A DNA stretch of 24,000 nt from positions 38,564 through 62,563 of the forward strand of contig DASZVP010000002.1 of the NCBI GenBank assembly GCA_035546935.1, read 5' to 3'. The first letter of the stretch is position 1. Each line of letters starts with the position of its first letter. The notes below the pieces were generated by a model. The model searched no databases, had not been told where the DNA came from, and saw only the letters and a list, made by a program, of their open reading frames with translations. This document shows, one piece after another, positions 5,371 to 22,277 of the stretch. The translations under genes and the position numbers were made by a program. The stretch is from Candidatus Saccharimonadales bacterium. GTDB lineage: Bacteria; Patescibacteriota; Saccharimonadia; Saccharimonadales; UBA4665.

Positions 5371-5399
5371 ATTATACCGTCTTTTTAGGCCCGGGCAAA
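5371..5399 (-). promoter_or_regulatory. Candidate promoter TTTGCC-17-TATAAT for the tRNA-Ser(UGA)/tRNA-Ser(GCU) unit
   Basis: On the minus strand, TATAAT is the revcomp of 5371-5376 and TTTGCC the revcomp of 5394-5399, with a 17-nt spacer. The -10 lies about 21 nt upstream of the tRNA 5' end at 5349. The -35 overlaps the end of comF. Confidence 0.4.
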
Positions 5400-6694: not shown

Positions 6695-6722
6695 AAAACC
6701 CCCGGTTCGCCCGGGGGGTTTT
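6695..6722. terminator. Bidirectional rho-independent terminator between hsp20 (+) and the last pilin gene (-)
   Basis: The sequence is AAAA-CCCCCGG-TTCG-CCCGGGGGG-TTTT. A GC-rich stem is flanked by an A-run on one side and a T-run on the other, so it can terminate in both directions. Confidence 0.75.
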
Positions 6723-6739: not shown

Positions 6740-7174
6740 TTATTGCAGGTTGCCGACGCCCGACTGCGTGGTGTTGATCACGTAGTGGACAATAATCTGC
6801 GCCAGCGCGACGACGACCAGGCCGACGATAGCGTAAATTAAGGTGTTCTTGGCGCCCGTGACACCGTCACCACCACCAGAGGTAATGTATTTGAAACCGC
6901 CATAAATAATCATGATGACGGCCACGATACCGACTACCACTGAGAAAATGTTGACTACTTTAGAAGCCACATTGCTCAGATCGGTGGTGCCGCCCTTACC
7001 GGCGTTGCCACACCCAGTGCCGTTACCCTCGCCAGTAGCGTTGTTAACACCCTGACATAGACCACTAACAATACCGCCTGATGCGGCGCTAGCGCTGGCC
7101 GGAATCAAAGCAGGGGCAAACAAGCCAAGACTGGCAACTGCCACGATGATGTAAGTTTTTAATTTTCGGATCAT
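6740..7174 (-). CDS. T4SS pilin-like protein (TrbC/VirB2-like), paralog 1 of 6, last in the array with its own promoter
   Basis: This is a 144-aa protein. It has a signal peptide (…PASASA), two Cys in a Gly-rich segment (LCQG…GTGCG) and a TM helix. Then come the loop 'GGFKYITSGGGDGVTGAKNTLIYAIVGL' and a second TM helix. This matches the architecture of VirB2/TrbC and the CPR 'T4SS_pilin' family. Confidence 0.75.
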   Translation of the reverse strand: MIRKLKTYIIVAVASLGLFAPALIPASASAASGGIVSGLCQGVNNATGEGNGTGCGNAGKGGTTDLSNVASKVVNIFSVVVGIVAVIMIIYGGFKYITSGGGDGVTGAKNTLIYAIVGLVVVALAQIIVHYVINTTQSGVGNLQ

Positions 7175-7200
7175 AGTTACCTTTCTTTAATCTTAACCTT

Positions 7201-7230
7201 TTTATACCACAATACTTAAAGCTATTTCAA
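7201..7230 (-). promoter_or_regulatory. Extended -10 promoter TTGAAA-18-(TGg)TATAAA dedicated to pilin paralog 1
   Basis: On the minus strand, TTGAAA is the revcomp of 7225-7230 and TGGTATAAA the revcomp of 7201-7209. A 26-nt leader containing an AAAGAAAGG-type SD precedes the ATG at 7174. Confidence 0.5.
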
Positions 7231-7245
7231 CTCTGTCGCCACAGC

Positions 7246-7647
7246 CTAGCCGGTGCCGGCCGCACTGCTGGTGCTATTAATGACAAAGTGAACAAGGAAT
7301 TGGGCCGCCACGGTAATAGCAATACCGATGAGCGCATAAATTAGGGTTGTTTTGGCGGTGGCTGCCTTATTGGAATCACCAGCTGCCGTAATGTATTTCA
7401 GGCCGGCGACAATGACCATTATTACAGAGATAATACCAGTGATTAGGCTCAAGATGTTAACCACTGTGCCGGCGACTGTGCCCACACTTTTACCGCCGGA
7501 GCCACAATCTGTGGAGCTATCAATTTGGCTGAGGCCTTGGCAAGCGTCTTGCTGCAGAGCGCTAGCTGCGTAAACTACCGAGGTTGAACCTACGCCAGCA
7601 AAGGCTACGCTGAGTGCAATTGCGAGTGATAAGAATCTGCGTTTCAT
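7246..7647 (-). CDS. T4SS pilin-like protein (TrbC/VirB2-like), paralog 2
   Basis: This is a 133-aa protein with a signal peptide (…VVYAAS) and a Cys pair (DACQG…TDCG). It continues with a TM helix, 'AGLKYITAAGDSNKAATAKTTLIYALIGI' and a second TM helix. The SD GGAGAGGAAAA precedes the ATG. Confidence 0.75.
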   Translation of the reverse strand: MKRRFLSLAIALSVAFAGVGSTSVVYAASALQQDACQGLSQIDSSTDCGSGGKSVGTVAGTVVNILSLITGIISVIMVIVAGLKYITAAGDSNKAATAKTTLIYALIGIAITVAAQFLVHFVINSTSSAAGTG

Positions 7648-7657
7648 TTTTCCTCTC

Positions 7658-8053
7658 CTACGTTAGCCTATCCAATACCACAACAACAATAGTTTGGGCC
7701 AAAATGGCTATTGCCACGCCAATCAATGAATAGGTGAGCGCGTTACGCGCTTCGGCCACCTTGCTCGAGTCACCGCCGTCAAGCGCCATCCGCATACCGC
7801 TGACCACTACACCGATAATGGCTGCAATACCGATTACCCAGGATAAAACTTCAATGGCTATTTTAATGGTGTGGATCACAGGATTATTGCTGCCGTTGTC
7901 ACCGCCCTGCGAATCGACATCTTGGCAGACAGCCGGGTTGCCACCGGCGCTATCTTTACCGCAGTGTTGGAAAAGATCTACGGCAGCAGCTTGGCCAACC
8001 GTCGCAGTGGCCAAAACTAAAGGTGCCAGCAACATTAAGATGATACGTTTCAT
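7658..8053 (-). CDS. T4SS pilin-like protein (TrbC/VirB2-like), paralog 3
   Basis: This is a 131-aa protein with a signal peptide (…GQAAA) and a Cys pair (HCGK…AVCQD). It continues with a TM helix, 'SGMRMALDGGDSSKVAEARNALTYSLIGV' and a second TM helix. Its start overlaps the stop of paralog 4 by 4 nt. Confidence 0.7.
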   Translation of the reverse strand: MKRIILMLLAPLVLATATVGQAAAVDLFQHCGKDSAGGNPAVCQDVDSQGGDNGSNNPVIHTIKIAIEVLSWVIGIAAIIGVVVSGMRMALDGGDSSKVAEARNALTYSLIGVAIAILAQTIVVVVLDRLT

Positions 8054-8382
8054 AGGCGGCTCAATACTAATGACACTATGGCTTCGGCGCTAATCGCCAC
8101 CGCTAAACCAACCAATGCATAAATGATAGTCTGGCGGGCCTTGCTGATTTCTTCGGGGTTGCCTTGAGCTGTAATAAACTTCAGGCCACTAATGACAATA
8201 ATTAAAACGGCAATCGCACCCATAATGCCAAACACTATCTGTAAAACCTCGTGCACTTGATTGGAGCTCACGCCCACCGTTGGCAGACCGGTATTACAAC
8301 TGGTTTGCGTTTTGGGGTCACACAAGGCTTGAGCAGTAGCCAGGAGATGCATGACGTAGTGGGCGGCAGAGTTCATAATCAT
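8050..8382 (-). CDS. T4SS pilin-like protein (TrbC/VirB2-like), paralog 4 (short N-terminus)
   Basis: This is a 110-aa protein with a short, atypical leader (MIMNSAAHYVMHLLATAQA) and a Cys pair (LCDPKTQTSC). It continues with a TM helix, 'SGLKFITAQGNPEEISKARQTIIYALVGL' and a second TM helix. Confidence 0.7.
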   Translation of the reverse strand: MIMNSAAHYVMHLLATAQALCDPKTQTSCNTGLPTVGVSSNQVHEVLQIVFGIMGAIAVLIIVISGLKFITAQGNPEEISKARQTIIYALVGLAVAISAEAIVSLVLSRL

Positions 8383-8385
8383 ATT

Positions 8386-8760
8386 TTACTTGATACTCTT
8401 TGCTACAAAGGACACAATCGCGGCTGCCATAACGGCTATGGTTAGGCCAACCAGGGCGTTGACAATCATGTTTTTGGCCTTGGCGGTTGCCTCGGTCTCG
8501 GCCTGGCTAGTTATATAGGTAAAGCCACCGTAAATCACAAAGATAACAGCGATAACAGCGGCCAAGCGCAGCAGTATCTCGATAACAGCCGCAACGATGA
8601 GCCAGATGTCGCTCAAACTGCCAAGTTGCGGTGTACAGAGGCCAGAGTTAGGATCTGTGGTTTGTTTAAGGTATTCATACCAGGTTGGAAATCCCAAAAA
8701 GCCGGAGTGAGCACCATTGGTACAAGCGGCGGCAAAATTAGAGAAGGCGGTAGCGATCAT
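8386..8760 (-). CDS. T4SS pilin-like protein (TrbC/VirB2-like), paralog 5 (divergent N-terminal region)
   Basis: This is a 124-aa protein with no canonical signal peptide. Its Cys pair is widely spaced (AAACTNG…SGLCTPQ). It continues with a TM helix, 'GGFTYITSQAETEATAKAKNMIVNALVGL' and a second TM helix. Its start overlaps the stop of paralog 6 by 4 nt. Confidence 0.7.
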   Translation of the reverse strand: MIATAFSNFAAACTNGAHSGFLGFPTWYEYLKQTTDPNSGLCTPQLGSLSDIWLIVAAVIEILLRLAAVIAVIFVIYGGFTYITSQAETEATAKAKNMIVNALVGLTIAVMAAAIVSFVAKSIK

Positions 8761-9152
8761 TGATGTAAGAATCCTGCTGGCAAAATGTAATTAAGAAAGG
8801 CGTAGCCGAAAATGTAAAACAGCATGGCCATAACTGTACTGCGGATGCGCTTCACGGCATTGGCCGTGCCGTTCGGATCCCCACCGGCTGCCGAATACTG
8901 AATGCCGGCCACAACCAGCGAGCCCACAATCACCAAGCCAACGCCATCGGAGAGAATGCGAATTATGGCAAAGACCAGGTCGGTGATCGGGTTGCCGATA
9001 CCTTTACAGCCAATATTAATGGCCGTGGTGATGCCGCTGTGCCCGCCACCACCGCCACCGCAAGTATCAGCAAAAGCTACGGCTGTGGGTGTCGCGGCAA
9101 AAAGCAGGGCTAGAGCAAAAGCTGAAATTAGTTTGTGTTTTATGCGCTGCAT
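8757..9152 (-). CDS. T4SS pilin-like protein (TrbC/VirB2-like), paralog 6 (first gene of the operon, most divergent)
   Basis: This is a 131-aa protein with a signal peptide (…AVAFA). Its Cys pair flanks a Gly run (DTCGGGGGGHSG…IGCKG). It continues with a TM helix, 'AGIQYSAAGGDPNGTANAVKRIRS' and a second TM helix. Confidence 0.65.
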   Translation of the reverse strand: MQRIKHKLISAFALALLFAATPTAVAFADTCGGGGGGHSGITTAINIGCKGIGNPITDLVFAIIRILSDGVGLVIVGSLVVAGIQYSAAGGDPNGTANAVKRIRSTVMAMLFYIFGYAFLNYILPAGFLHQ

Positions 9153-9160
9153 TTTCTGTT

Positions 9161-9189
9161 ACTATAGGTGCTTTTTGGCCTTTGGTCAA
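9161..9189 (-). promoter_or_regulatory. Promoter TTGACC-17-TATAGT for the pilin operon; ATG lies 8 nt after the -10 (candidate leaderless)
   Basis: On the minus strand, TTGACC is the revcomp of 9184-9189, followed by a 17-nt spacer and TATAGT (revcomp of 9161-9166). Then come aacagaaa and the ATG at 9152-9150. There is no SD. Confidence 0.5.
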
Positions 9190-9292
9190 GCTTGGGTACG
9201 CTGTTGGCGGCGCCTATGGCAGCTTTATTTTTTAGCATTAGGGTGATTAAATAAGAGCTGTAATTTAGCCGAACCAGGCTTCGGCGGACAGT

Positions 9293-11581
9293 GTGGGCAA
9301 ACAAATTTATATGCGATTAAAATTAAAACCAACCGGCAAACTCCGAAAAGTGTCGCTGATTGTCTTTCTTTCTATTGTTCTTTCACTAGAGTGGGGCAGC
9401 ACACTTCAGGGCCAGAGTCCGATTAGTGCCGATGCCCTGGCTGCCGGGCACCAAAGCCATTCATTACTGAGCAAGTTTACGCTGTTTGGCGACACCGTCG
9501 ACCCGAACTGCGAAAGCAGCGGTATCACCCTTAACTGGGTGTTTTGTGGCATTTATGATGGCATATCTGACAGCGCGACTTTCATACTGACACACTTAAT
9601 TGAGCCGGAGCTTAAGACCGCACCACTTTGTTTAAACGGCACAGGGCCTAACTGTAGCCCTCACGACCCCACCTATGCGATTTGGTCCAACTTCCGTGTT
9701 TATGGCGACATTTTTCTGGTAATTGCCTTGTTGGTGATTGTTTTTGGCGAGGCAATCGGTGGCGGGGTAATCGACTCATACACTGTTAAGCGAACCTTGC
9801 CGCGTTTGCTGGCAGCTGCCATTCTTATTAACTTGTCTATTTATATTGTCGCCTTCGCATTGGACGTCGGCAATATTCTTGGCGGAGGCATAGGCAGCTT
9901 GATTACCGCGCCGCTACAGGGCGCTGGCGCCTTCACTATCCACCCCAATGGAACAGTCGCCACCGCAGAAGTTGGAGCTCTTGGCATCATTGGTCTGGCA
10001 TTTGCCGCAAAAGGCGCAGCCGGTGCTCTAACCAGTAAAGCCGGCCTGAAGGCCTTGTTTACTTTGAAGGGCGGCTCAGTCCTTATCGATGGTATTCTCA
10101 TACCGGCTTTCCTGTTATTTGTGGCTATCCTAGCAACCATTGCTGTGCGAAAAGCCATCATTTTGGCCCTGGTTTTTGTCTCGCCTGTAGCCTTCGCGCT
10201 GTACGCGCTGCCCAACACCGAGCAGTACTTTAAGCGCTGGTGGAAGCTACTCCAAGAAATGGTGCTTGTCTACCCGATTATTGTGCTGATGTTTGCGGTC
10301 AGTGATGTTTTGTCGGTAACCGTCGAGGCACCCACAGCTACCACTGGCGCAGCCAGTGCAGGAGTAAACCTGCTACTATCCTTTGTTTTCTTGATCATCC
10401 CACTGTTTATGATTCCTTTCAGCTTTAAGTTAGCTGGTGGTGTCTTGGGGCGAATTCACGACTTCGTCGACAATGGCCGCCAAAAAGCACACAGCTGGAA
10501 CGAAGGCCGCCGCGAACGCGGCAAAGCCAAGTGGAAAGCAGCCGACGTCCAGACCCGCTCCGACCGCTATGCCGCAATGCAAAAGTACGCCTCCACTAAA
10601 GGCAAGCCTTTCAGAGGACTTGTAGGCGGTATGGCAGGTTTTTACGGCGGCTACAATATTGAGGCTGAAGCCTCCAAAATTCGCGCCGATACCGCCAAAG
10701 AGGTAAACGACCAGATTGCTACTGGTAAAGATGACGAAATTCGCGGCCTATTGATTGATAAAAAGACCGCTGAACGCAAAGTGGAGAACGGCAAAGTACA
10801 GTACCGCAGTCTTGGCGGTCAATGGGTTGATGAAGCGGCCGTCGATGCTGGTCAAGCTCGTTGGGGTCACGATACTTTTGCTATGCAAGCTGCTCTGTCT
10901 TACGAAATGCGTAAAGCCGACTCTGAAGAAGATGTTGCGCGTATTCGTAGCAACTTTGGCAATACCGCAAAAGCCCTTGGTGTAAGCAGGACAGCAGCTC
11001 AAGGGATGTGGATTGGTGCCGCTTTTGAAAACCAGAACCAGCACTTAGAATTCAAATACCGTGACTGGGAAACTGGCCAAATGAGTGCCGATAATGCTCG
11101 GAAGTTTGCTTCAGAAGCATACGAGAAGAAGGGCAGCTACCAAATGGCCCAGATGCATGCCAGCACTATCGAAAGCTTAAGCACGGCTTATGATGTAGCT
11201 GAACGAGCGGGCGACACTGAAACCATGGACAAAATTGCAGCTGTCGCCGAAACCTTTATGACACGTTACGGTGGTGCCGCAGGTGGTGCTGGGGCACCTG
11301 ACGATCCTGCTCAGCAAGCGGTTGCAGCACAACAAGCCCAACAGGCAGCTGCTTGGGCCGCCACCATGGGCGCCACACCTGTTGGCACCGGAGCTCCTGG
11401 TGCGGCTGGTGGACCAGTTCCACAAGCTGAGCCTGTGGTGCAGACAAACACACCTGGCGCAGGCCACGTGGCAGAGAAAGTACGCCAGCTAGCAGTCAAA
11501 ACCGGTGTTTACCGACCGCTTAGTCGACCTACTGATATTGGCCCCGAAGATTCGGGACCAACTATTGATCGCCAAAACTAA
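9293..11581 (+). CDS. VirB6/TrbL-like polytopic T4SS membrane protein with a large C-terminal hydrophilic domain
   Basis: This is a 762-aa protein; the start could be GTG 9293 or ATG 9311. It has an N-terminal signal/TM and a 4-Cys ectodomain, then about 7-8 hydrophobic helices across residues 130-400. A roughly 360-aa hydrophilic domain ends in a Gln/Ala/Pro-rich low-complexity tail. The architecture resembles the VirB6-like proteins of Gram-positive T4SS (TcpH/PrgH/ConG type). The call rests on architecture and context. Confidence 0.6.
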   Translation: MGKQIYMRLKLKPTGKLRKVSLIVFLSIVLSLEWGSTLQGQSPISADALAAGHQSHSLLSKFTLFGDTVDPNCESSGITLNWVFCGIYDGISDSATFILTHLIEPELKTAPLCLNGTGPNCSPHDPTYAIWSNFRVYGDIFLVIALLVIVFGEAIGGGVIDSYTVKRTLPRLLAAAILINLSIYIVAFALDVGNILGGGIGSLITAPLQGAGAFTIHPNGTVATAEVGALGIIGLAFAAKGAAGALTSKAGLKALFTLKGGSVLIDGILIPAFLLFVAILATIAVRKAIILALVFVSPVAFALYALPNTEQYFKRWWKLLQEMVLVYPIIVLMFAVSDVLSVTVEAPTATTGAASAGVNLLLSFVFLIIPLFMIPFSFKLAGGVLGRIHDFVDNGRQKAHSWNEGRRERGKAKWKAADVQTRSDRYAAMQKYASTKGKPFRGLVGGMAGFYGGYNIEAEASKIRADTAKEVNDQIATGKDDEIRGLLIDKKTAERKVENGKVQYRSLGGQWVDEAAVDAGQARWGHDTFAMQAALSYEMRKADSEEDVARIRSNFGNTAKALGVSRTAAQGMWIGAAFENQNQHLEFKYRDWETGQMSADNARKFASEAYEKKGSYQMAQMHASTIESLSTAYDVAERAGDTETMDKIAAVAETFMTRYGGAAGGAGAPDDPAQQAVAAQQAQQAAAWAATMGATPVGTGAPGAAGGPVPQAEPVVQTNTPGAGHVAEKVRQLAVKTGVYRPLSRPTDIGPEDSGPTIDRQN

Positions 11582-12183
11582 TTTGGTGGCATGCCGAGTA
11601 ACAGACGCCCGTTAGCTCGGGCTTGGCGCTCTAGATTTTCGACATTAATAGCCAGGTTGATGGTCTTTTGATCTATGCCATAAAGACCGTTTTCAAACGG
11701 AATGTCAGGATGCTCGCCACTAAATATTTCTGAACGTGAACCTTGAGTTGTGGCATACCCAGCCGCTTTCAGAAAGTCTGGGTGAATTGGGTAGGCGCTC
11801 AGGTCTACTGTCCCGAGGTCGACAGCTTTACCATCATCCTCTACGGCTTGAGTCATACGAATAGTGCCATCTTCCAGTAAACAGATGGTGCGCTCGCCCT
11901 TTTCATGAGTTTTAACACTTGAGATCGTCCAACCCTTACCTACTGAACTAATCTTTTTTCTTACACCATTTTTATCAACCTTGTCGACAGTTATAACCTC
12001 AAGGTCTGTGGCAACGTTTCTGCTTGCTAATACAGTGCGTAGATCAGAAAGGGCAACACCCAGCTCAGCAGCTAATTCCATTACTGCCGCTCGAGCCTCA
12101 GCGTCCCGTGTACGCACTTCGTCGCGCCATTCTTGGCGGCGTGTGCGAGGATTTGGCCGGTTAAAGAATGCTGGTGTTGTCAT
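11578..12183 (-). CDS. Hypothetical cytoplasmic protein with an HTH-like N-terminal segment, embedded antisense in the T4SS locus
   Basis: This is a 201-aa protein with no TM helix. The N-terminus is Arg-rich and is followed by 'MELAAELGVALSDLRTVL', which resembles a helix-turn-helix. A strong promoter lies directly upstream. Its stop overlaps the stop of the convergent VirB6-like gene (CTAA, 11578-11581). Confidence 0.6.
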   Translation of the reverse strand: MTTPAFFNRPNPRTRRQEWRDEVRTRDAEARAAVMELAAELGVALSDLRTVLASRNVATDLEVITVDKVDKNGVRKKISSVGKGWTISSVKTHEKGERTICLLEDGTIRMTQAVEDDGKAVDLGTVDLSAYPIHPDFLKAAGYATTQGSRSEIFSGEHPDIPFENGLYGIDQKTINLAINVENLERQARANGRLLLGMPPN

Positions 12184-12205
12184 AACTCTTATACATTAGC
12201 ATAAT
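12177..12205 (+). promoter_or_regulatory. Candidate promoter TTGTCA-17-CATAAT for the prgI-virB4-hydrolase operon, interdigitated with the opposing promoter
   Basis: TTGTCA lies at 12177-12182 and overlaps the start codon of the minus-strand gene. A 17-nt spacer precedes CATAAT at 12200-12205. The two -10 hexamers, 12193-12198 (minus) and 12200-12205 (plus), are adjacent. Confidence 0.45.
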
Positions 12206-12221
12206 AGGTTAAAAATGTCAA
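12193..12221 (-). promoter_or_regulatory. Near-consensus promoter TTGACA-17-TAATGT for the 201-aa gene; ATG lies 9 nt after the -10 (candidate leaderless)
   Basis: On the minus strand, TTGACA is the revcomp of 12216-12221, followed by a 17-nt spacer and TAATGT (revcomp of 12193-12198). Then come ataagagtt and the ATG at 12183-12181. Confidence 0.55.
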
Positions 12222-12242
12222 TCTAGACAGGGGTATTGGAGG

Positions 12243-13229: not shown

Positions 13230-13277
13230 TTCGTCATTAACAGATTGGCGAACAAATAAAGGTGGGACAGTAAAAAC

Positions 13278-14126
13278 ATGAATCCTCAAGCACCAAGACC
13301 GGTCGATCCCTTGTCTCAAGGCGCCGCACCGGCTCCTCAGCCCGTGGCTCCCGGAGTTCCGGGCGCTGCTCCTGTACCGGTAGCTCCAGGTTTTCAGTCC
13401 AACCCCAACAGCACACAAAACACTCTGCAAATCGCGGAAGTCCGTGATGGAGTTGTTATTATGAACGACGGCTCGTACCGCTCAGTAATTATGGTCAAAA
13501 GCATAAACTTTGATCTGATGAGTGGTGCTGAGCAGGAAGCTGTGGAATATAGCTATCAGGGTTTCCTAAACTCCTTGTATTTCCCGGTGCAGATATTCGT
13601 GCGCTCTTCGAAAGTCGATCTGAAGCCTTATATTGAAAAGCTGGAGAAGATCCGCACCGAACATGAAAACATGCTGCTGGCCGTACTGATGGACGACTAC
13701 ATCGGCTACATCGATTACCTCAGCCAACGCACCAACATTATGGACAAAAAGTTTTATGTGGTGGTGCCGTTTTTCCCTGTTGTTGACGTCCAAAAAGCTC
13801 TGACTCAAAGCAAGAACTTCTTCAGCGGTTTGGGCGAGATTTTCAGCAAAAAAGAGCAGCATGTGACAATTAACGAAGCCGATTTAGAGGCTGCCAAAAC
13901 TGAACTGCGCAACCGCGTGCAAGCCGTGCTGGCCGGTCTGCAACAGTGCGGCATTCAAGGTTTGCCGCTGGATACACAGGAACTAATTGAGCTTTACTAC
14001 GACAGCTATAACCCAGATACCGCCACCCGCCAGTCGCTGAAGAGCTTCCCAGACTTGTCGGCTGATGTCATTAGCAAAGGTGAGGGTTCGGCGCCGCAAG
14101 CTCACTTGCAAAGGGAGATGCAGTAA
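13278..14126 (+). CDS. Protein resembling a VirB4 N-terminal domain (Gram-positive ConE/PrgJ type), encoded separately
   Basis: This is a 282-aa protein. A Pro-rich N-terminus is followed by 'LQIAEVRDGVVIMNDGSYRSVIMVKSINFDLMSGAEQEAVEYSYQGFLNSLYFPVQIFVRSSKVDLKPYI'. That stretch resembles the extreme N-terminal region of Gram-positive VirB4 ATPases. There is no Walker motif. The stop TAA overlaps the next ATG (TAATG at 14124-14128). Confidence 0.55.
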   Translation: MNPQAPRPVDPLSQGAAPAPQPVAPGVPGAAPVPVAPGFQSNPNSTQNTLQIAEVRDGVVIMNDGSYRSVIMVKSINFDLMSGAEQEAVEYSYQGFLNSLYFPVQIFVRSSKVDLKPYIEKLEKIRTEHENMLLAVLMDDYIGYIDYLSQRTNIMDKKFYVVVPFFPVVDVQKALTQSKNFFSGLGEIFSKKEQHVTINEADLEAAKTELRNRVQAVLAGLQQCGIQGLPLDTQELIELYYDSYNPDTATRQSLKSFPDLSADVISKGEGSAPQAHLQREMQ

Positions 14127-16075
14127 TGGCTTTTGGCGGCAAAAAAAACCAAACTCCGACAGACCCCGTGGCAATCGCTCAGATGCAGCAAGCCCGCGAG
14201 CAGCAAGAGGTGCAGCTGGCCTTTCAAAAAGGTATTACGGCGCTGCGCGACTTTATTTCGCCGAGCTCCATCGAACTTTTTAATACGCACTTCCAGCTGG
14301 GCACGCGTTACGCTCGCACTTATTATGTCTACGGCTACCCGCGCCAGGTTTACACCGGTTGGTTGAGCGGCTTGGTTAATGTCGATGAAGTTATCGACAT
14401 CAGCATGTTTATTTATCCGGTAGAGAGCCAGGTGGTGCTGGAAAACTTGCGTAAAAAGGTGACACAGCTGGAAGCTGGCATTCAGATCGATAATGAAAAG
14501 GGCCGTGTGCGCGACCCGGGTAAGCAGGCCGCGATTTTGGACGCCGAAGAAATGCGTGACAAGCTGCAGGTAGGCGAAGAGCGTTTCTTCCGCTTTGGCC
14601 TGTACTTTACGCTGTACGCTGGCTCGATGGACGAGCTGGAATTTGTTTCACACAAGGTGGAGTCAATGCTCGGCCAGCAGCTGGTTTACTCCAAGGCGGC
14701 CACCTCGCAGCAAGAGCAGGGCCTGAACAGTACGATTCCGCAGCTTACCGACCAGTTGCAGATTCGCCGCAACATGAACACCGGCGCCTTGTCGACTAGT
14801 TTCCCCTTTACCAGCGCTGACCTGACCCAGGACAATGGCATTTTGTATGGCATCAACATGCACAACTCCGGCTTGGTGATTTTTGACCGTTTCTCTCTGG
14901 AAAACAGCAACTCAGTGGTCTTCGCTAAGTCTGGTGCCGGTAAGTCATTTGCAGTCAAACTGGAAGCGCTACGCAGTATGATGTTCGGCACCGAAATCTT
15001 TATTATCGACCCAGAAAATGAGTATCAGCGAATGTGCGACGCCGTTGGTGGTGCTTATGTACGCCTCAGTCTTAACTCCACCACACGCATTAACCCCTTT
15101 GATTTGCCCAAGGTGGTCGATGCTGAAGAAGCCGACAACGCCCTGCGCTCCAACCTGATCACCTTGCACGGTCTGCTGCGGCTGATGATGGGTGGCGCTC
15201 AAGCTCAAATGTTGGGCGGTAATGCCGCCATTATGCCTGCTTTGTCGCCATCTGAGGAGGCCGATCTGGATGCGGCCCTGATTGAAACCTACGCCAAGGC
15301 CGGCATCACCAACGACCCACTGACCCATACAGCCATTCCGCCGACAATTGCTGATTTGTATGATACTTTGCTGCACATGGGCGGCAGTGGACCGCAGCTG
15401 GCCCAGCGCCTGCGCAAATACACCAGCGGAACTTTCGCCGGCATCTTCAGCCAGCAAAGCAACATCGACATTAACAACCCGTTGGTTGTCTTCAATGTCC
15501 GTGACCTGGAAGACGAGCTGCGCCCGGTCGCTATGTATATTGTGCTAAATTACATCTGGAATAAGACAAAAACCGACCAACGACGGCGCATCCTGTTAAT
15601 CGATGAGGCCTGGCAGCTAATGAAATACGAAGATTCAGCCAACTTTATGTTCTCGCTGGCCAAGCGTGCTCGCAAGTACAATTTGGGCATTACCACTATT
15701 TCCCAGGACGTCGAAGATTTTATGGGCTCCCGCATGGGCCGGGCAATTGTGGCGAACGCCTCGATGCAATTGCTTCTCAAACAATCACCATCCGCCGTTG
15801 ACATCTTGGCTGATGTGTTCAAATTGACAAGTGAAGAAAAGAAACGTTTGAGTCAGTTCCCGGTTGGCCAGGGTCTATTCTTTGCCGGTCAAAACCACGT
15901 GCATGTTCAGGTTGTGGCCAGCCCGACCGAAGAAGGATTGGTTAGCAGCTCGCCGGCTCAAGCCGCGCCAAATGGTCCGCCAGGCATAACTGGCGAGATT
16001 AATCAGAGCCAGGGCACCATCGATCTTGGCAACCGTTTGAGCCCGGGCAGCACCGGACTTGTCGGCGGTATGTAA
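14126..16075 (+). CDS. virB4: VirB4-family T4SS ATPase (lacks the extreme N-terminal segment)
   Basis: This is a 649-aa protein. It carries 'RYARTYYVYGYPRQVYTGWLSGL', the typical VirB4/TraE '…yP..v..gwl' motif. Walker A 'AKSGAGKSF' sits near residue 270, Walker B is 'RILLIDEAWQL', and 'ITTISQDVEDF' follows. The SD GGAG lies 8 nt upstream of the ATG. Confidence 0.9.
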   Translation: MAFGGKKNQTPTDPVAIAQMQQAREQQEVQLAFQKGITALRDFISPSSIELFNTHFQLGTRYARTYYVYGYPRQVYTGWLSGLVNVDEVIDISMFIYPVESQVVLENLRKKVTQLEAGIQIDNEKGRVRDPGKQAAILDAEEMRDKLQVGEERFFRFGLYFTLYAGSMDELEFVSHKVESMLGQQLVYSKAATSQQEQGLNSTIPQLTDQLQIRRNMNTGALSTSFPFTSADLTQDNGILYGINMHNSGLVIFDRFSLENSNSVVFAKSGAGKSFAVKLEALRSMMFGTEIFIIDPENEYQRMCDAVGGAYVRLSLNSTTRINPFDLPKVVDAEEADNALRSNLITLHGLLRLMMGGAQAQMLGGNAAIMPALSPSEEADLDAALIETYAKAGITNDPLTHTAIPPTIADLYDTLLHMGGSGPQLAQRLRKYTSGTFAGIFSQQSNIDINNPLVVFNVRDLEDELRPVAMYIVLNYIWNKTKTDQRRRILLIDEAWQLMKYEDSANFMFSLAKRARKYNLGITTISQDVEDFMGSRMGRAIVANASMQLLLKQSPSAVDILADVFKLTSEEKKRLSQFPVGQGLFFAGQNHVHVQVVASPTEEGLVSSSPAQAAPNGPPGITGEINQSQGTIDLGNRLSPGSTGLVGGM

Positions 16076-16143
16076 AACAGCTTTTTTCTCAGGTTGACGG
16101 GGTATAATAAAGGCATTAGAGGAATTGGCAGGAAAAACTAAAA

Positions 16144-18885
16144 ATGGCCGTTTACGACCCGGAGCCAGAGGATAGCAACAAACCTGGTTTTTATAACCCG
16201 CACGACGGTTCGATTCAAAATGGTTTGGGCTCTAATGGCAGTTATCGTGAAAAGTACTTAAGCCGGGTTCGTGATCAAGAAGATAACCCCGACGACTCCA
16301 GCCAGGGCGATGATTCAAGCACTTCAGATGAGTCGGACAGAGTTAACCAAATCTCTGGCGACTCAAGTGGTCATGCTAATAGGGGCAGAAAGAGCACAAG
16401 CGACGACCGAAACTCTAATAATGACGATGGCGGCAGTTTCAAGCGAGGTGGCAAAGCTGGCGCCGGTAAAACCGGTACAGACGGAGTTAAAGGCGCTGAT
16501 GGTGGCGGCGCAGCCGGAACAGCCGGCCTGTTCAGGGCTGCCGATCCCATGGGGGGCCTGGGCAAAGCTGTGCAATTTTTGGGCAAGAACAAGGGTAAGG
16601 CTGGCGCAGCCGGCGGCGGCTTAACAGCTTTGATTTTGTTGCTGGTCATGGGTTTTGGTGCGGTGGCATCTTTTGAACTGGAAACAATAGCTAAAGATAT
16701 TTCTAAAGACGTTAGTAAAATTGAGCAGGCCGCAGAAAGAAACTCTTCTAAAAGACTTATCAAAAAGATTAAAAAGCGTCTCGAGAAGAAGGCTACTGCC
16801 AACGAGGCCGAGAAGGCCGCCATGGCCGCCGAGGATAGCGCCGGCAGATTAGCCAGCGAAATGGACAAATTCAATTTTACTGACTCAGAGGTGAAGGCAA
16901 GGTTAGCTGCACGTGGTATCCACGTTAAAACCAATGCTGCGGGTGAGTTTACTGGTTTTGAAGACGCCGCCGGTAACGATATCACCAAACAAATAGGCGA
17001 GGATAACGCTTTTACCGATGCTTTTAATGAGGCCTTGCCTGAAGCCGATGTCATGCAGCTGAAACCGTTCCAGGCCATAGAAACCGAACATGCCGGCAGT
17101 ACTTTTGATGGCATACCTGAAGATACGCCACCAGAAGAAACTCAAAAGACCATTGAAGATAAAATAATGAATGGCGCCAGCGAATCAGACATAATCAGTG
17201 CCGAGGCGGGTGATGAAAGTGACGACGGTCAGGTCGATGAAAACAATCCTGATGAAGCCAAACAGGCCAGCGATTTTGATGAAATAAAAAAACAAGGTGG
17301 CGAGCTTGGCGACGCATTGGAAGCCACTCAAGAAAGCTTGGCAAAGGGTGAGTCGGGCGCCAGTGCGCTGAGTAAGGGCGTTAAATCATTCAAGCTTGGT
17401 AACCCGATATTGGCCAGCCAGCTGGCAACAATGGCCTGCGGCTTTAAAAAGGATGTTGACGAGGTCTCCAAGGCCCGTATTCCGTTGATTATGCATCTGT
17501 TAACACGGCATTTTACATTAGTGATGAGTTTGGCTGGACAATTGGTCACCGGCCACCTCAAAGGCGCTACTGTGGCTAAGGTTATGTCCGTGTGGAATGG
17601 CGACCAGAGCGTGAAGCCAACCAAGGACGACCCCAACCCTGAGGCGGCAATGCCGTTCAGTAAGTCAGCTGCCTGGCAACGCATTACCGGTGGCACCATT
17701 GACGACAATCCCAAGAGTCCCGGCTTCACGCCCGATATTGCCAAGTCGGCTTTGCCGTCCAAAAATACTGGCACTAAGATTGTTGAGGAAATTGATAAGG
17801 TGTTCAGTAAGATTAAGGGTGCAAACCTTTCCTGTAAGGTTCTGACCAGCAAGTTTGGTTTTATTGTTCAGACTGTGGTCGGTATTGGTCAGCTGTTCGC
17901 GGATCTTGGCTCGCTGGGTGCTTCTCAGGTAGCTATTACCGCTGGAATTGTAGCTACTCAGCAGCTGATAGAACACGTGGTGCTGCCTGACATTATCAAG
18001 TATTTCACACCGGTCGGTATTTATGGTGGTGAAGATTCAGTACAACAACTTAACAACACACATGCTGGCGGCGTGATTGCCGAAAGCGACTTTGCGCGCA
18101 GCAACGGCGGCGAACCACTGACAACCAGCAAGGCAAACGAGATAACCAGGTCCCAAAACGCACATCTCGCTATGGTAGAAAGCCGGAAACCCTGGACAGA
18201 ACGCACCTTTAGCCTTGATGATCCCGGCTCTCTGGTTAGTCGCATGGCCCTGTACTTACCCGTTAACACTCACCAAATGGTTGGTGATGTAGCCAGTTTC
18301 TTTGCTACACTGCCGCAAACTTTAGGACATGTTTTCAGCAATCTAATTACGCCGCATATTGGCGCATTAACAGATAACGACCAGAGTGCGGGTGCGGCTT
18401 ACGATATTACAGAATATGGCTTTACTGAAGCCGATGCCAATAAATATGATGTCTTGGAAAATGAAAAATATCTTAACACAACGGTTACTTACAACGGCAA
18501 CAGCGCCACTCGTTTAGAAATGGCTGGCGATCCCAACAACTTTTTAGATGGTGTAATTGATTCCAGCGATACCGATTTGCTGCACTGCTATTTGCAGAGC
18601 TACACACAAGAAGATTCCAACGGCCAGATGTTGGTAAATGATGACGGCAGCGACAAAATATGCGGTTCGTTGGGCAATTACGATCTGGGCCGTCATGCAC
18701 CGCAACCAATGACTGACACCAATGTGGCAATATCTTATTGCGAATACCTGGAAGGCTCTTCATCGCCGTCTGGTGATTGCCTGGATGCTGTAATCCCACA
18801 ACTGCACGACGACATCGGTCACTTCCGACAATACATCTTGGACTCACACGTTATGCACGCTTACACGCTGTTGGTGGGCTCATGA
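16144..18885 (+). CDS. Large (913 aa) orphan membrane-anchored protein of the T4SS operon
   Basis: The first ~150 residues are disordered and rich in Asp/Ser/Gly. One clear TM helix (LTALILLLVMGFGAVASF) follows, then a Lys/Glu/Ala-rich helical region and an acidic linker. The remainder is a globular region of about 550 aa with an internal hydrophobic stretch (FGFIVQTVVGIGQLFADLGSLGASQVAITAGIVA) and a Cys-containing C-terminus. I recognise no family. Confidence 0.7.
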   Translation: MAVYDPEPEDSNKPGFYNPHDGSIQNGLGSNGSYREKYLSRVRDQEDNPDDSSQGDDSSTSDESDRVNQISGDSSGHANRGRKSTSDDRNSNNDDGGSFKRGGKAGAGKTGTDGVKGADGGGAAGTAGLFRAADPMGGLGKAVQFLGKNKGKAGAAGGGLTALILLLVMGFGAVASFELETIAKDISKDVSKIEQAAERNSSKRLIKKIKKRLEKKATANEAEKAAMAAEDSAGRLASEMDKFNFTDSEVKARLAARGIHVKTNAAGEFTGFEDAAGNDITKQIGEDNAFTDAFNEALPEADVMQLKPFQAIETEHAGSTFDGIPEDTPPEETQKTIEDKIMNGASESDIISAEAGDESDDGQVDENNPDEAKQASDFDEIKKQGGELGDALEATQESLAKGESGASALSKGVKSFKLGNPILASQLATMACGFKKDVDEVSKARIPLIMHLLTRHFTLVMSLAGQLVTGHLKGATVAKVMSVWNGDQSVKPTKDDPNPEAAMPFSKSAAWQRITGGTIDDNPKSPGFTPDIAKSALPSKNTGTKIVEEIDKVFSKIKGANLSCKVLTSKFGFIVQTVVGIGQLFADLGSLGASQVAITAGIVATQQLIEHVVLPDIIKYFTPVGIYGGEDSVQQLNNTHAGGVIAESDFARSNGGEPLTTSKANEITRSQNAHLAMVESRKPWTERTFSLDDPGSLVSRMALYLPVNTHQMVGDVASFFATLPQTLGHVFSNLITPHIGALTDNDQSAGAAYDITEYGFTEADANKYDVLENEKYLNTTVTYNGNSATRLEMAGDPNNFLDGVIDSSDTDLLHCYLQSYTQEDSNGQMLVNDDGSDKICGSLGNYDLGRHAPQPMTDTNVAISYCEYLEGSSSPSGDCLDAVIPQLHDDIGHFRQYILDSHVMHAYTLLVGS

Positions 18886-20993: not shown

Positions 20994-20995
20994 CC

Positions 20996-21640
20996 ATGAA
21001 CCCTGTGACAAACCGCCTATACTTTCCGTTGGCTGTTGTTATCGTCGCGGCCCTAAGTTTTTGGTCGATGCTGCGCCCTTACGGTCCGCCGGCGAACAGC
21101 ACGCTTAAACTAGAAGTGGCGCCGGCCAGCGCCGTTATTAAGCTTGATGGGCGCAACATTAAGGCTGGTGAGCAAAAAGTTACGGCTGGCAGCCATGTAG
21201 TTTCGGTAAGTCTGGGCGGTTTCGAGCGCAAAACCATCAGCCTAATTGCCCAGGCTAATCAACCCAGCTATGCGGCGATAGTTTTAACTCCGAATTCGGC
21301 CGATACACAGAATTGGTATAAAACTCATCCGTCTGATGCAGCTATTGTTAATGTGGTGGGCAGCCACCAGGCGGATTTTGAGGTGCAGCAAATCAAACAG
21401 GCAACCCCCTTCATTAATCAGTTGCCGGTTACTTACGGCGATGGACATGGCGGTTTGGTGACAATCAGCCCGGGCGCAGCCGTGCGCAAAGGTTCGCCCA
21501 CTGCAATTTATATCAATGCCGCCACCCCATCACTACGGCAAGACGCTCTAGCTTACATCCGAAACCGCGGTTATGATCCGGCCAACACCGATATAGTGTT
21601 TACAGCCTTTAACAACCCGTTTGGCAGGAGCAGGGATTGA
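20996..21640 (+). CDS. Bitopic membrane protein with a PEGA-like domain
   Basis: This is a 214-aa protein with an N-terminal TM helix (LYFPLAVVIVAALSFWSML). The segment 'LEVAPASAVIKLDGRNIKAGEQKVTAGSHVVSVSLGGFERKTISL' fits the PEGA pattern. Its ATG lies 2 nt after the hydrolase stop. Confidence 0.55.
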   Translation: MNPVTNRLYFPLAVVIVAALSFWSMLRPYGPPANSTLKLEVAPASAVIKLDGRNIKAGEQKVTAGSHVVSVSLGGFERKTISLIAQANQPSYAAIVLTPNSADTQNWYKTHPSDAAIVNVVGSHQADFEVQQIKQATPFINQLPVTYGDGHGGLVTISPGAAVRKGSPTAIYINAATPSLRQDALAYIRNRGYDPANTDIVFTAFNNPFGRSRD

Positions 21641-21641
21641 T

Positions 21642-22277
21642 ATGGTCAAACGAGTAATAATTCTTTTGCTAGCAATAGTTGTCGGCGTAATAGGTGGTGG
21701 CATGGTTAATCAGCGACGCGGATTTGGTCAGGTTGAAGTTCACATTGATGACGGACTAACGGTGGCGGTTTATCCGGACTCGGGCGGCAACAACAGCTAC
21801 AACTATGACCCGCACCAAACGCCATTGTTTACCTTGCGTGCCGCGGAACAAACTATAAAACTTAAGCATGGTATCTATGACTTCGTGCTTATTGGATCAG
21901 TTTCTCAGTACGAAAACCCAGTCACCAAATTAGTTGTTAACAGTTCTCGCGAAGGAATTTCTATTAGCCCGACATACACTTACGGGAAGCTGAACAATCT
22001 ATTGAGTGATGAACGCAGTCAGATACAACAAGCCCTGTATAACGCCTATCCGGACCTTGGCGGGTCTTACATTGTGGGTGGTGATCAATTATTCGACAAA
22101 GGTGAATGGTATGGTGCGGCGCTACAGCCAATCGATCCCTCAAATGACAGGTTACACATTATCATGAAACGGTCTGGCGATCAGTGGGTGGTCGCGGCGG
22201 CGCCACAGATTAATATTGCTATCCCGGCCTACCCCAACATTCCCGACAATATTATAGATACGGTCGATCTACTTTAG
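21642..22277 (+). CDS. Bitopic hypothetical membrane protein (last gene of the T4SS operon)
   Basis: The track ORF is 21621..22277. The likely start is ATG 21642, giving MVKRVIILLLAIVVGVIGGG as an N-terminal TM helix. An SD-like AGGAGCAGGGA lies upstream. About 190 soluble residues follow, with no recognised family. Confidence 0.6.
   Translation: MVKRVIILLLAIVVGVIGGGMVNQRRGFGQVEVHIDDGLTVAVYPDSGGNNSYNYDPHQTPLFTLRAAEQTIKLKHGIYDFVLIGSVSQYENPVTKLVVNSSREGISISPTYTYGKLNNLLSDERSQIQQALYNAYPDLGGSYIVGGDQLFDKGEWYGAALQPIDPSNDRLHIIMKRSGDQWVVAAAPQINIAIPAYPNIPDNIIDTVDLL

Follow-up and report, generated by a model that had tools for sequence, protein, structure and literature searches.

The window analyzed here, a stretch of 24,000 nucleotides from a MAG of Candidatus Saccharimonadales, contains a T4SS-like gene cluster with an array of pilins among core chromosomal genes. 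Is this cluster a conjugative element or a fixed device of the cell and, if the latter, what might it transport and in which direction? Taken whole, the locus is best explained (at a probability of about 0.8) as the chromosomal T4SS of Saccharimonadia (Patescibacteria), fixed, vertically inherited and descended from an MPF-FATA-like machine for conjugation in monoderms. The features discussed below are as follows.

5385..5996, minus strand: comF-like phosphoribosyltransferase (Pfam Pribosyltran, 38.9 bits)
6185..6670, plus strand: hsp20, small heat-shock protein (Pfam HSP20, 62.4 bits)
6699..6717, unstranded: GC-rich hairpin, 7 G-C pairs, T-runs on both strands
6740..7174, minus strand: pilin 1, VirB2-like, 144 aa (PF18895, 51.6 bits)
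7246..7647, minus strand: pilin 2, VirB2-like, 133 aa (PF18895, 40.8 bits)
7658..8053, minus strand: pilin 3, VirB2-like, 131 aa (PF18895, 32.2 bits)
8050..8382, minus strand: pilin 4, VirB2-like, 110 aa (PF18895, 47.5 bits)
8386..8760, minus strand: pilin 5, pilin-like, 124 aa (PF18895, 26.3 bits, just under the 26.6 cut-off)
8757..9152, minus strand: pilin 6, divergent pilin-like, 131 aa (PF18895, 20.1 bits, under the cut-off)
9153..9292, unstranded: intergenic region from which the pilin operon and the VirB6-like gene diverge
9293..11581, plus strand: extended VirB6/TrbL-like polytopic protein, 762 aa (756 aa from the NCBI start)
11578..12183, minus strand: orphan antisense ORF, 201 aa, hydrophilic, no TM segment
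12243..13229, plus strand: PrgI/VirB3-like protein, 328 aa, two TM helices, then a long Pro/Ala/Ser-rich tail
13278..14126, plus strand: TrsD-like protein, 282 aa
14126..16075, plus strand: VirB4 ATPase of monoderm (MPF-FATA-like) type, 649 aa
16144..18885, plus strand: bitopic protein, 913 aa
18882..20993, plus strand: anchored bifunctional cell-wall hydrolase, 703 aa, N-terminal Amidase_3, C-terminal NlpC/P60-like
20996..21640, plus strand: exported or anchored protein, 214 aa, N-terminal hydrophobic segment
21621..22277, plus strand: anchored protein, 218 aa (211 aa in the other gene call), TM segment 12-30
22269..23333, minus strand: recF (SMC_N, 71.7 bits), conserved flank gene, syntenic in 66 loci
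23353..24000, minus strand: dnaN, truncated by the window end (DNA_pol3_beta domains)

Layout and setting of the cluster

The cluster fills exactly the span that an earlier sequence-only reading had assigned to it, from the stop codon of pilin 1 at 6740 to that of the last gene at 22277. That reading counted 16 genes; we count 15, as does a second gene call made independently, and a 16th is excluded because the intergenic gaps are only 48-140 nt, too small for any further gene. The 15 genes encode six VirB2-like pilins, a VirB6-like protein, the antisense orphan, PrgI/VirB3, a split VirB4 (two genes), the 913-aa bitopic protein, the Amidase_3 plus NlpC/P60 hydrolase and two small exported proteins.

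It is bounded by comF-hsp20 and recF-dnaN-dnaA. Its flanks are those described before: hsp20, the comF-like PRTase and tRNAs lie to its left, recF and dnaN to its right; dnaA lies directly past the window end, where the DnaA C-terminus can be read in the source contig (L001:19537-20202). The comF-like gene, syntenic in 22 related loci, is a conserved flank gene and at most a putative part of the machine. The hsp20 gene, likewise a conserved neighbor (median identity 76% in 35 loci), and the pilin operon are convergent, hsp20 and the pilin 1 gene facing each other with their 3′ ends, and the hairpin between them, which the terminator scan called on both strands, is by consensus match probably a bidirectional terminator common to the two. 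The pilin operon has a promoter-like site (TTGACC-17-TATAGT, 10 of 12 matches, a consensus match only) at 9189-9161 on the minus strand, and the promoter scan lists another at 12177-12205 with the PrgI gene.

Components of the machine

The claim of six pilins stands: all six match PF18895 (T4SS_pilin), four of them above its gathering score of 26.6 bits and two below, and the TrbC/VirB2 model PF04956 gives all six a sub-threshold score in the Pfam scan. Pilin 1 in addition scores 29 bits against the NCBIfam Mbov_0395 pilin-like model, below its cut-off of 40. Pilin 1 is predicted to start with a signal-like segment and to end in two hydrophobic helices, and pilin 6, the first gene of the operon, to have a signal-like N-terminus plus two helices; pilin 4 has only two TM-like segments and no clear signal peptide, and pilin 5 also has no signal peptide. 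The paralogues are 23-40% identical to one another in pairwise comparisons. Among 24 six-gene arrays, best matches fall on the same position for 98% of pilins 1, 83% of pilins 4, 100% of pilins 5 and 96% of pilins 6; the figures are weaker for pilin 3 (54%) and pilin 2 (44%, many matching position 1 instead). By these matches, the paralogues are positionally orthologous across species.

The VirB6-like protein has the layout expected of its name, with an N-terminal anchor, an exported loop containing two invariant cysteines (C67 and C79), and five or six TM helices; its C-terminal domain of ∼380 aa, K/R-rich and confidently helical, probably lies in the cytoplasm. In precomputed tables it is labelled PF19590 (TrbL_3), as are the majority of its 479 homologues, but our own hmmscan found no match and did not reproduce this label. 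The top five Foldseek matches in the PDB to its AF2 model (pLDDT 79.7) are five R388 TrwI/VirB6 chains, with probabilities of 0.85-0.99, E values of 5e-3 to 0.1 and low TM-scores. The VirB6 assignment draws on the precomputed label, the fold matches with their low TM-scores and the topology; the blank result of our own profile search counts against it.

The slot between the VirB6-like gene and PrgI is variable, and relatives carry unrelated charged genes there. In the window it holds the antisense orphan ORF, which has the top codon score among the six frames, yet a GC3 of 0.40; the spacing of NCBI locus tags implies a PGAP gene call at this place. It has no homologue in the related loci, the profile libraries or the other searches made, and its membership in the system is uncertain. 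The PrgI assignment is borne out by PF12666 (43.8 bits, cut-off 27), and PrgI/VirB3 was found in 74 related loci.

In VirB4 a Walker A motif (KSGAGKS) and a Walker B motif (LLIDEAW) can be spotted by eye, and the protein is of the monoderm type as had been claimed: it scores 352 bits against NCBIfam conju_CD1110 (cut-off 325), at profile positions 182-732, and 97 bits against P-loop_TraG. Among solved structures the closest is 4AG5, a monoderm VirB4 (E 2.6e-47), whereas the diderm TrwK gives only E 6.6e-05. Across 80 species genomes of Saccharimonadales the identity of the protein is 82-88%; these 80 loci were retrieved from 572 confirmed relatives in species genomes, and those listed are nearly all Saccharibacteria. 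Identity, profile and PDB match together would place it with the Patescibacteria clade that is related to MPF-FATA.

The gene immediately upstream, whose stop codon overlaps the virB4 start codon in the shared base 14126, was left unassigned in the first reading. Its 282-aa product matches CD1110 at positions 2-117 of 752, VirB4_plasma at 99-253 and TrsD at 20-142 of 201, all below cut-off, and bears the precomputed label PF26593 (TraC-like); the gene is present in 79 of the 80 loci at a median identity of 72%. By these partial profile matches, this TrsD-like protein is the detached N-terminal domain of VirB4, which is thus split in two genes.

Downstream of virB4, the 913-aa protein has a disordered N-terminal region of ∼158 aa and a single TM helix (159-177); its large extracytoplasmic domain is all-alpha and contains conserved Cys. 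Its family has 148 representatives, among which relatives add VanY, M23, M74, GH26 or EEP modules, and its AF2 model (pTM 0.74) has no fold match in the PDB or BFVD. The hydrolase that follows had been called CwlT/PrgK-style. It is indeed bifunctional and anchored and has an NlpC/P60-like end (22.3 bits, cut-off 23, with candidate catalytic Cys and His found by eye), but its other domain is an Amidase_3 (61.7 bits; PDB amidase 4RN7 at E 1.3e-3) in place of the muramidase/SLT domain, and the middle region between the two has no family assignment. Judged by its domains, it is functionally analogous to CwlT/PrgK with a different architecture. At least 12 types of envelope-degrading domain occur in the proteins of 84 relatives in the enzyme slot downstream of virB4, a polymorphic slot in which the Amidase_3 plus NlpC/P60 pair is a minority variant. 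The 214-aa and 218-aa proteins have homologues at the same slot in 13 and nine related loci, respectively; the former has no Pfam match and the latter no family match in the profile scans.

A fixed chromosomal locus and its known counterparts

The synteny comparison with relatives shows that the order comF-hsp20-pilins-VirB6-PrgI-TrsD-VirB4-[variable]-recF-dnaN is kept in the ∼45 related Saccharimonadales species genomes with long loci. Median identities are 85% for VirB4, 72% for TrsD, 68% for DnaN, 56% for RecF and 35-48% for the pilins; the 913-aa protein, the hydrolase and the small exported proteins stay under 30% where any similarity is detected at all. Conservation thus drops steeply from the motor, which lies above DnaN, to the extracellular parts. 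Profile scans of all window proteins found no T4CP, relaxase or integrase and no VirB7/9/10 family match, all as claimed; no VirB8-like protein was found in the cluster. Element ends are likewise absent, the terminal-repeat search having given only short chance repeats, and GC content is uniform along the window. Synteny between the same core genes in ∼45 species and the lack of mobility genes bear out the earlier view of a chromosomal, non-conjugative system, though a T4CP may still be encoded in another part of the genome.

By position and content, the locus is orthologous to SEML1_0004-0019 of Southlakia epibionticum ML1, according to the published gene table, in which order, gene sizes and domain types match gene for gene over SEML1_0004-0021. 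The order shared with the ML1 T4SS (SEML1_0004/0006-0019; Wang et al. 2023, Cell) runs from dnaA-dnaN-recF through two small exported proteins, a large hydrolase, a ∼1000-aa protein, VirB4, a ∼290-aa TrsD-like protein, PrgI, VirB6-like and six pilins to hsp20, comF and tRNA-Ser, and both clusters are without T4CP and relaxase. The 913-aa protein takes the position of SEML1_0007, the 214-aa protein that of the PEGA-domain protein SEML1_0005, and the 218-aa protein that of SEML1_0004. There are differences: ML1 has two VirB6-like genes flanking a non-essential NTF2/VirB8-like gene, whereas in the window a single, shorter VirB6-like gene is accompanied by the unrelated antisense orphan; the ML1 hydrolase has two lysozyme-like domains and a Cys protease instead of Amidase_3 and NlpC/P60; and the large ML1 protein has at its end a DD-peptidase module, which is missing from the 913-aa protein. 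Tn-seq showed the ML1 T4SS to be essential (Wang 2023, PMC10633639); the corresponding genes are all essential, including all six pilins and SEML1_0020, the hsp20 counterpart, barring the recF counterpart, the comF counterpart SEML1_0021 (classed NE, non-essential) and SEML1_0012, which has no homologue in the window cluster.

Pilin arrays, relaxase absence and origin proximity have been described across Patescibacteria (McLean 2020, PMC7427843; Quinonero-Coronel 2025, PMC12102498). Everything essential in the Patescibacteria-clade T4SS survey (PMC12102498) and the TM7x region (PMC7427843) recurs here, namely an MPF-FATA-related VirB4, TrsD, PrgI/VirB3, VirB6, 2-11 divergent VirB2-like pilins, no relaxase and dnaA/dnaN proximity.

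The pilins had seemed at odds with the idea that T4SSs of Gram-positive bacteria have no VirB2 pilins, but that idea is being overturned: in pCF10 the VirB2-like PrgF, assembling on VirB6, is reported to be essential (ter Beek 2025 preprint, bioRxiv 10.64898/2025.12.18.695078). Among monoderm conjugative T4SSs (pCF10 Prg/Pcf, ICEBs1 Con and the C. difficile CTn CD1110 type), it is the CD1110-family cut-off that VirB4 passes. The cluster shares with MPF-FATA systems PrgI/VirB3, a VirB6-like protein, an anchored multi-domain wall hydrolase and the absence of VirB7/9/10. It differs from them in having no relaxase, T4CP, oriT or mobility, in being chromosomal and vertically inherited, in its six pilin paralogues rather than one, in its split VirB4, in that no VirB8-like protein was found and in being essential for growth in the sole species tested (ML1).

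The Ced system of Sulfolobales consists of a VirB4/HerA-like ATPase, a VirB6-like polytopic protein and VirB2-like pilins. Ced and Helicobacter pylori ComB are minimal T4SS-derived DNA importers without T4CP or relaxase, and the comparison made here is one of parts lists alone; both are dispensable for growth, have neither large lytic proteins nor a six-pilin array, and are distant in sequence from the window's proteins. Bordetella pertussis Ptl is likewise T4CP-less, and a resemblance to the ptx/ptl locus was remarked by McLean 2020 (PMC7427843). Ptl, however, works in a diderm, has VirB7/9/10 and exports a single toxin that is assembled in the periplasm, and nothing of this kind is present here.

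Proposed working and direction of transport

How such a machine might work follows mostly from homologous systems. The six pilins would enter the membrane as helical hairpins. VirB4, made as two polypeptides (the TrsD-like N-domain and the motor) from genes with overlapping stop and start codons, would dock on a platform of PrgI/VirB3 and the VirB6-like protein and pull the pilins out, and these would polymerise on VirB6, forming a short pilus or tube, although no pilus has been observed on these cells. The anchored lytic proteins (the 913-aa protein and the amidase plus NlpC/P60 hydrolase), with the two small exported proteins, would breach the cell wall, and the tube would connect the epibiont to its host bacterium. 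The wall that is opened probably includes that of the host, because the lytic parts differ strongly from species to species and the motor hardly changes; the hypervariable hydrolases may instead mirror differences among the epibionts' own walls.

Since coupling protein and relaxase are absent from the cluster, the cargo probably does not originate in the epibiont cytoplasm as relaxase-bound DNA. We favor uptake of host material, with nucleic acid as the leading candidate cargo, by analogy with Ced and ComB, with whose T4CP-less parts lists the cluster agrees. A partial match to the NCBIfam CedB model in the profile scan of window proteins (52.5 bits, cut-off 700) points the same way, as does the dispensability of comEC in ML1 while the T4SS is essential (PMC10633639, PMC11665869).

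Export of effectors or toxins that subvert or permeabilise the host is a possible but tentative second choice after uptake. The cargo might be loaded outside the membrane post-Sec as in Ptl, although a monoderm lacks the periplasm for such loading, or might pass through a T4CP encoded elsewhere in the genome. Homologues of the latter are common outside such clusters (5,713 in 2,918 Patescibacteria genomes; PMC12102498), but the distant one in ML1 is non-essential, against an essential T4SS (PMC12102498). Most T4SSs export, Ptl and Brucella VirB function without a T4CP (PMC12857230), the likeness to the Ptl locus noted by McLean 2020 fits, and protein export was among the options suggested by Wang 2023 (PMC10633639). 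The polymorphic enzyme modules beside virB4 could themselves be cargo, in polymorphic-toxin fashion, but the N-terminal anchors of the lytic proteins suit resident wall-breaching enzymes more than released cargo, and neither an effector nor a chaperone or secretion signal can be recognised.

It is rather improbable that the organelle serves attachment or penetration only, anchoring the epibiont in the host envelope and transporting nothing, with nutrients entering through other transporters. Conjugative pili are primarily attachment organelles (PMC12857230), the profile scans of window proteins recognised no substrate-handling component, and strong variation of the extracellular parts is expected for host recognition. 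Saccharibacteria, however, already attach by two type IV pili and several adhesins (PMC12206443, PMC10633639), and an energised VirB4/VirB6/VirB3 channel core conserved above DnaN exceeds the apparent needs of adhesion.

An ICE or its decayed remnant, with relaxase, T4CP and integrase outside the window, is very unlikely and already close to refuted: VirB4 does fall in the conjugation-type family conju_CD1110, tRNA genes and a 35-nt duplicate of the tRNA-Ser 3′ end lie ∼1.7 kb leftward and a few Patescibacteria have relaxases (109 in 103 genomes; PMC12102498), but the conserved placement of the whole cluster between comF-hsp20 and recF-dnaN in ∼45 species genomes argues it out, as do the uniform GC, the lack of terminal repeats and mobility genes in 24 kb, and the essentiality of the ML1 genes, which is unexpected for an ICE.

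The favored reading, a fixed chromosomal T4SS probably engaged with the host, agrees with published Saccharibacteria work and supports the earlier suggestion of a host- or partner-interaction device in a small genome. It is a correct rediscovery and not a novelty, because the system was described and shown to be essential between 2020 and 2025 (PMC7427843, PMC10633639, PMC12102498, PMC12857230). The present analysis makes modest additions to the Patescibacteria surveys: the positional orthology of the pilins, the conservation gradient from motor to extracellular parts, and the catalogue of enzyme modules that make the slot downstream of virB4 polymorphic. The locus is a real and biologically important T4SS cluster beside the replication origin of the ultra-small, host-dependent Saccharibacteria.

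Gene content and chromosomal setting

[quoted passage not shown]

Left flank: comF-like phosphoribosyltransferase gene, hsp20, three tRNA-Ser, one tRNA-Arg, and genes for a BrkB/YihY membrane protein and a GDSL lipase-like protein
6740-9152, minus strand: pilin array, six tandem genes of 110-144 aa (p1 to p6; p1 lies nearest hsp20)
After the pilin array: divergent intergenic region, 140 nt
Plus strand: genes of 762 (VirB6-like), 328 (PrgI), 282 (TrsD-like), 649 (VirB4), 913, 703 (hydrolase), 214, and 218 aa
11578-12183, minus strand: 201-aa ORF wedged between the 762-aa and 328-aa genes
Right flank: recF and dnaN

A sequence-only reading of the window had counted 16 genes, but the gaps are too short for an extra gene and an independent gene call also gives 15. 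Its description of the flanks as core genes (hsp20, comF-like gene, and tRNAs on the left; recF-dnaN on the right) agrees with the map. The GC content of the window is even (about 0.50-0.55), and an Rfam scan of it finds four tRNAs and nothing else. On the source contig the C-terminus of DnaA follows directly after dnaN. DnaA boxes are not enriched near dnaA-dnaN (6 versus 3.7 expected) and the intergenic region contains none, so the label "origin-proximal" derives solely from the dnaA/dnaN adjacency. Three independent assemblies (sequencing runs SRR12170512, SRR12170514, and SRR12170518; L001, L082-L084, and L087-L089) all stop inside dnaA, just to the right of the window, suggesting that assemblies repeatedly break at or near the origin.

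Three features of the left side may be mentioned. Between the convergent hsp20 and p1 genes, a hairpin with a perfect 7-bp G-C stem and a T-run on each strand (6699-6717) looks like a bidirectional terminator common to the two. A 35-nt, 86% identical copy of the tRNA-Ser(gct) 3' end (4977-5011; compare 5110-5144) lies 133 bp downstream of that tRNA; neither ARAGORN nor Rfam calls a tRNA there, and the copy may be what is left of a former integration site. The GDSL lipase/acylhydrolase-like protein (13-1287, plus strand) has a C-terminal hydrophobic anchor, and its gene is separated from the left edge of the cluster by about 5.5 kb; in relatives, 10 of 84 proteins from the enzyme slot downstream of virB4 likewise carry a GDSL lipase domain.

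A scan of one genome per species confirmed 572 VirB4 relatives. The 80 retrieved are 82-88% identical to the window's VirB4, and nearly all belong to organisms named Saccharibacteria or Saccharimonadales. About 45 loci are long enough for the gene order to be read, and they share comF-hsp20-pilin array-VirB6-PrgI-TrsD-VirB4-(5-8 kb variable)-recF-dnaN. No window protein matches a coupling protein (T4CP), relaxase, integrase, or VirB7/9/10 family, and a repeat search of the window returned only short chance matches, so that the parts and element ends reported as missing are indeed not seen there. Since the cluster is fixed between the same core genes across many species, it is not an integrative conjugative element, as had been proposed; the synteny in those 45 or so loci rules that alternative out.

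The T4SS of the window is already known. All the headline features of the sequence-only reading are in the literature (the monoderm-type core, the pilin array, a cluster without relaxase or T4CP, and the origin-adjacent position), and so the window does not bring a new kind of system. The identification of a chromosomal monoderm-type T4SS in that reading is supported, with small corrections. McLean et al. 2020 (PMC7427843) described a VirB4/VirB6/VirB2 region in TM7x and across Saccharibacteria, and the 4-6 small Sec-secreted proteins arrayed in it. Wang et al. 2023 (PMC10633639) found the cluster of Southlakia epibionticum ML1 to be essential by Tn-seq; they noted that it is akin to Gram-positive conjugative T4SSs, that it has an essential pilin series, and that coupling and relaxase proteins are not recognizable in it. 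The published ML1 gene table shows the genes of the window in mirrored order: dnaA, dnaN, recF, small exported proteins (249 and 211 aa), a 643-aa hydrolase, a 1113-aa protein, VirB4, a 293-aa protein, PrgI, VirB6-like proteins, six pilins (103-185 aa), hsp20, comF, and tRNA-Ser. The ML1 counterparts of the window genes are all essential, except those of comF and recF (PMC10633639). Quinonero-Coronel et al. 2025 (PMC12102498) surveyed the system across Patescibacteria and reported a VirB4 clade that adjoins MPF-FATA; TrsD, PrgI/VirB3, and VirB6; 441 pilin arrays, each with 2-11 genes; almost no relaxases; T4CP homologs mostly far from virB4; and a site near dnaA/dnaN. A 2025 review places the Patescibacteria T4SS among the newest T4SS types.

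The motor and its membrane platform

The PrgI/VirB3-like and monoderm-type VirB4 assignments of the sequence-only reading were both borne out. PrgI passes PF12666 at 43.8 bits, and VirB4 scores 352 bits (cut-off 325) against the NCBIfam equivalog of the CD1110 family, whose members are VirB4-like conjugal ATPases. The nearest solved structure is the monoderm Thermoanaerobacter VirB4 (4AG5, E 2.6e-47), whereas diderm TrwK reaches only E 6.6e-05. The CD1110 match is restricted to profile positions 182-732. The 282-aa gene just upstream, whose stop overlaps the virB4 start, accounts for the missing part: its product aligns to the N-terminal positions of those VirB4 profiles as well as to TrsD. 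Thus VirB4 is split into two genes. This TrsD-like protein (13278-14126) carries PF26593 (TraC-like) in precomputed tables, and our own Pfam hmmscan did not return that family at E up to 10.

The VirB6 label is the weakest of the earlier assignments tested. Neither hmmscan against Pfam (E up to 10) and NCBIfam nor a profile search of PDB, built on an alignment of 60 sequences, found a match for the 762-aa protein (9293-11581); the label is upheld by a fold search and precomputed Pfam labels alone, and its topology is in keeping with it. Precomputed tables give PF19590 (TrbL_3) to this protein and to most of its 479 homologs; the PF19590 and PF26593 discrepancies may reflect different Pfam library versions. 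An AlphaFold model from the 60-sequence alignment has a pLDDT of 79.7, and its top five PDB fold matches are TrwI/VirB6 chains of the R388 machine (probability 0.85-0.99, E 5e-3 to 0.1), with low TM-scores. The predicted topology fits an "extended VirB6": the N-terminal anchor is followed by an exported loop, in which two cysteines are invariant, then by a block of TM helices and finally by a helical, K/R-rich C-terminal domain of about 380 aa. In relatives (816-1085 aa) the N-terminal exported region is longer by about 250 residues, which the window protein lacks; its residue 67 aligns with about residue 320 of theirs (L028:4619-7699 and L009:4545-7706, two retrieved loci).

The slot between VirB6 and PrgI is variable, and in relatives it holds unrelated, highly charged genes of 304-376 aa. 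In the window it contains the 201-aa orphan antisense ORF, whose product is hydrophilic and whose coding signal is weak but positive (highest codon score of the six frames; GC3 0.40 versus about 0.5 elsewhere). It is convergent with the VirB6-like gene, the stops overlapping by 4 nt; searches for a homolog among 80 related loci and in PDB, Pfam, NCBIfam, and phages were all negative.

Pilins, conservation gradient, and the slot after virB4

Pfam T4SS_pilin (PF18895) matches all six small proteins, as expected from their earlier description as VirB2-like; four exceed the gathering score (26.6) and two fall below it (26.3 and 20.1). None of the six reaches the threshold of the classical TrbC/VirB2 model, and a pilin profile finds no meaningful match in PDB. 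Two C-terminal hydrophobic helices are present in every pilin and a signal-like N-terminus in four of the six. The presence of such pilins had seemed paradoxical on the premise that Gram-positive T4SSs generally lack them, but a December 2025 preprint reports an essential role for the VirB2-like PrgF of pCF10 and the presence of VirB2-like proteins in about 95% of Gram-positive plasmid classes (bioRxiv 10.64898/2025.12.18.695078), and so the paradox disappears.

The six paralogs are 23-40% identical to one another. When best matches were sought in other genomes, among 24 six-gene arrays, p1, p4, p5, and p6 found the same position in 98%, 83%, 100%, and 96% of cases, respectively, with p2 and p3 less fixed (44% and 54%); larger arrays appear to expand via p1-like copies. 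This positional conservation, with the essentiality of all six in ML1, argues for old, specialized paralogs with distinct, non-redundant roles and against interchangeable antigenic variants.

Conservation drops steeply from the inside to the outside of the machine.

Median identity across the same loci (picking loci for their similarity to VirB4 somewhat raises the value for VirB4; the comparison with DnaN, made within those genomes, still stands)
VirB4: 85%
Hsp20: 76%
TrsD-like: 72%
DnaN: 68%
RecF: 56%
PrgI: 44%
Pilins: 35-48%
VirB6-like: about 29% overall; 43-49% in the TM block among closest relatives
913-aa protein, hydrolase, two small exported proteins: undetectable in most relatives

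In the related loci L002-L081, VirB4 (14126-16075) is more conserved across species than DnaN (23353-23976) or RecF. A conserved motor beside diverged exported parts points to the host interface as the probable evolving surface.

The genes after virB4 are a polymorphic slot of interchangeable envelope-degrading modules. The first always encodes a protein of 800-1700 aa. With the window's copy, phmmer recovers only 14 of about 65 of these; an exhaustive search gives its family only 148 cluster representatives. Longer relatives carry extra VanY, M23, M74, GH26, or endonuclease/phosphatase modules, none of which is present in the 913-aa window copy (16144-18885, plus strand). Its confident all-alpha model (pTM 0.74) has no counterpart in either PDB or BFVD (viral structures), and may represent a fold absent so far from both. 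The domains of the next one or two genes differ between species.

Domains in 84 slot proteins from relatives
Phage_lysozyme2: 43
Amidase_3: 11
CHAP: 11
NlpC/P60: 11
GDSL lipase: 10
M23: 9
SLT_2: 8
C39-like: 7
Also present: GH3, glucosaminidase, SLT, Amidase_2

The window's amidase plus NlpC/P60 pair is a minority version among these 84. Its hydrolase had been likened to CwlT or PrgK, which it resembles in being bifunctional but not in its modules (a clear Amidase_3 and a borderline NlpC/P60, 22.3 bits versus 23).

Proposed working and direction of transport

The observed basis for a mechanism is the parts list, its conservation, and its essentiality in one relative. By analogy with homologous machines, VirB4 and its detached N-domain would be seated on PrgI/VirB3 and the VirB6-like platform; VirB4 would extract membrane-inserted pilins and stack them on VirB6 as a tube, and anchored lytic proteins would open a path through the peptidoglycan. 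That the exported parts vary so extremely, when the motor hardly varies at all, suggests that they face the host envelope.

A cluster without relaxase or coupling protein makes cargo drawn from the epibiont cytoplasm less likely. The nearest parts lists are those of the T4CP-less importers Ced and ComB, and organisms of this group are unable to make nucleotides, yet do not need ComEC (PMC10633639, PMC11665869). Together these points lean toward uptake of material by the epibiont, to which we would give a probability of roughly 0.35-0.4. Export of Sec-delivered proteins, in the manner of the T4CP-less Ptl system, ranks next and is only slightly less likely than uptake. Within the uptake reading, it is a tentative proposal, more doubtful than uptake itself, that the six pilins are fixed, specialized subunits of one heteromeric tube that, with species-specific lytic modules, pierces the envelope of the host bacterium and serves as a feeding conduit through which nucleic acid or other macromolecules of the host are taken up.

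The fixed pilin positions, the inside-outside conservation gradient, and the polymorphic slot after virB4 go beyond the literature and are possibly useful to the field; the enzyme modules of that slot are candidates for host-range determinants. If the feeding conduit proposal is true, a conjugation machine would have been reversed into an essential nutrient-uptake organelle; to our knowledge, no other T4SS is essential for the growth of its bearer. The system is important for its conservation throughout a huge radiation of mostly uncultured bacteria, and its function is an attractive problem.
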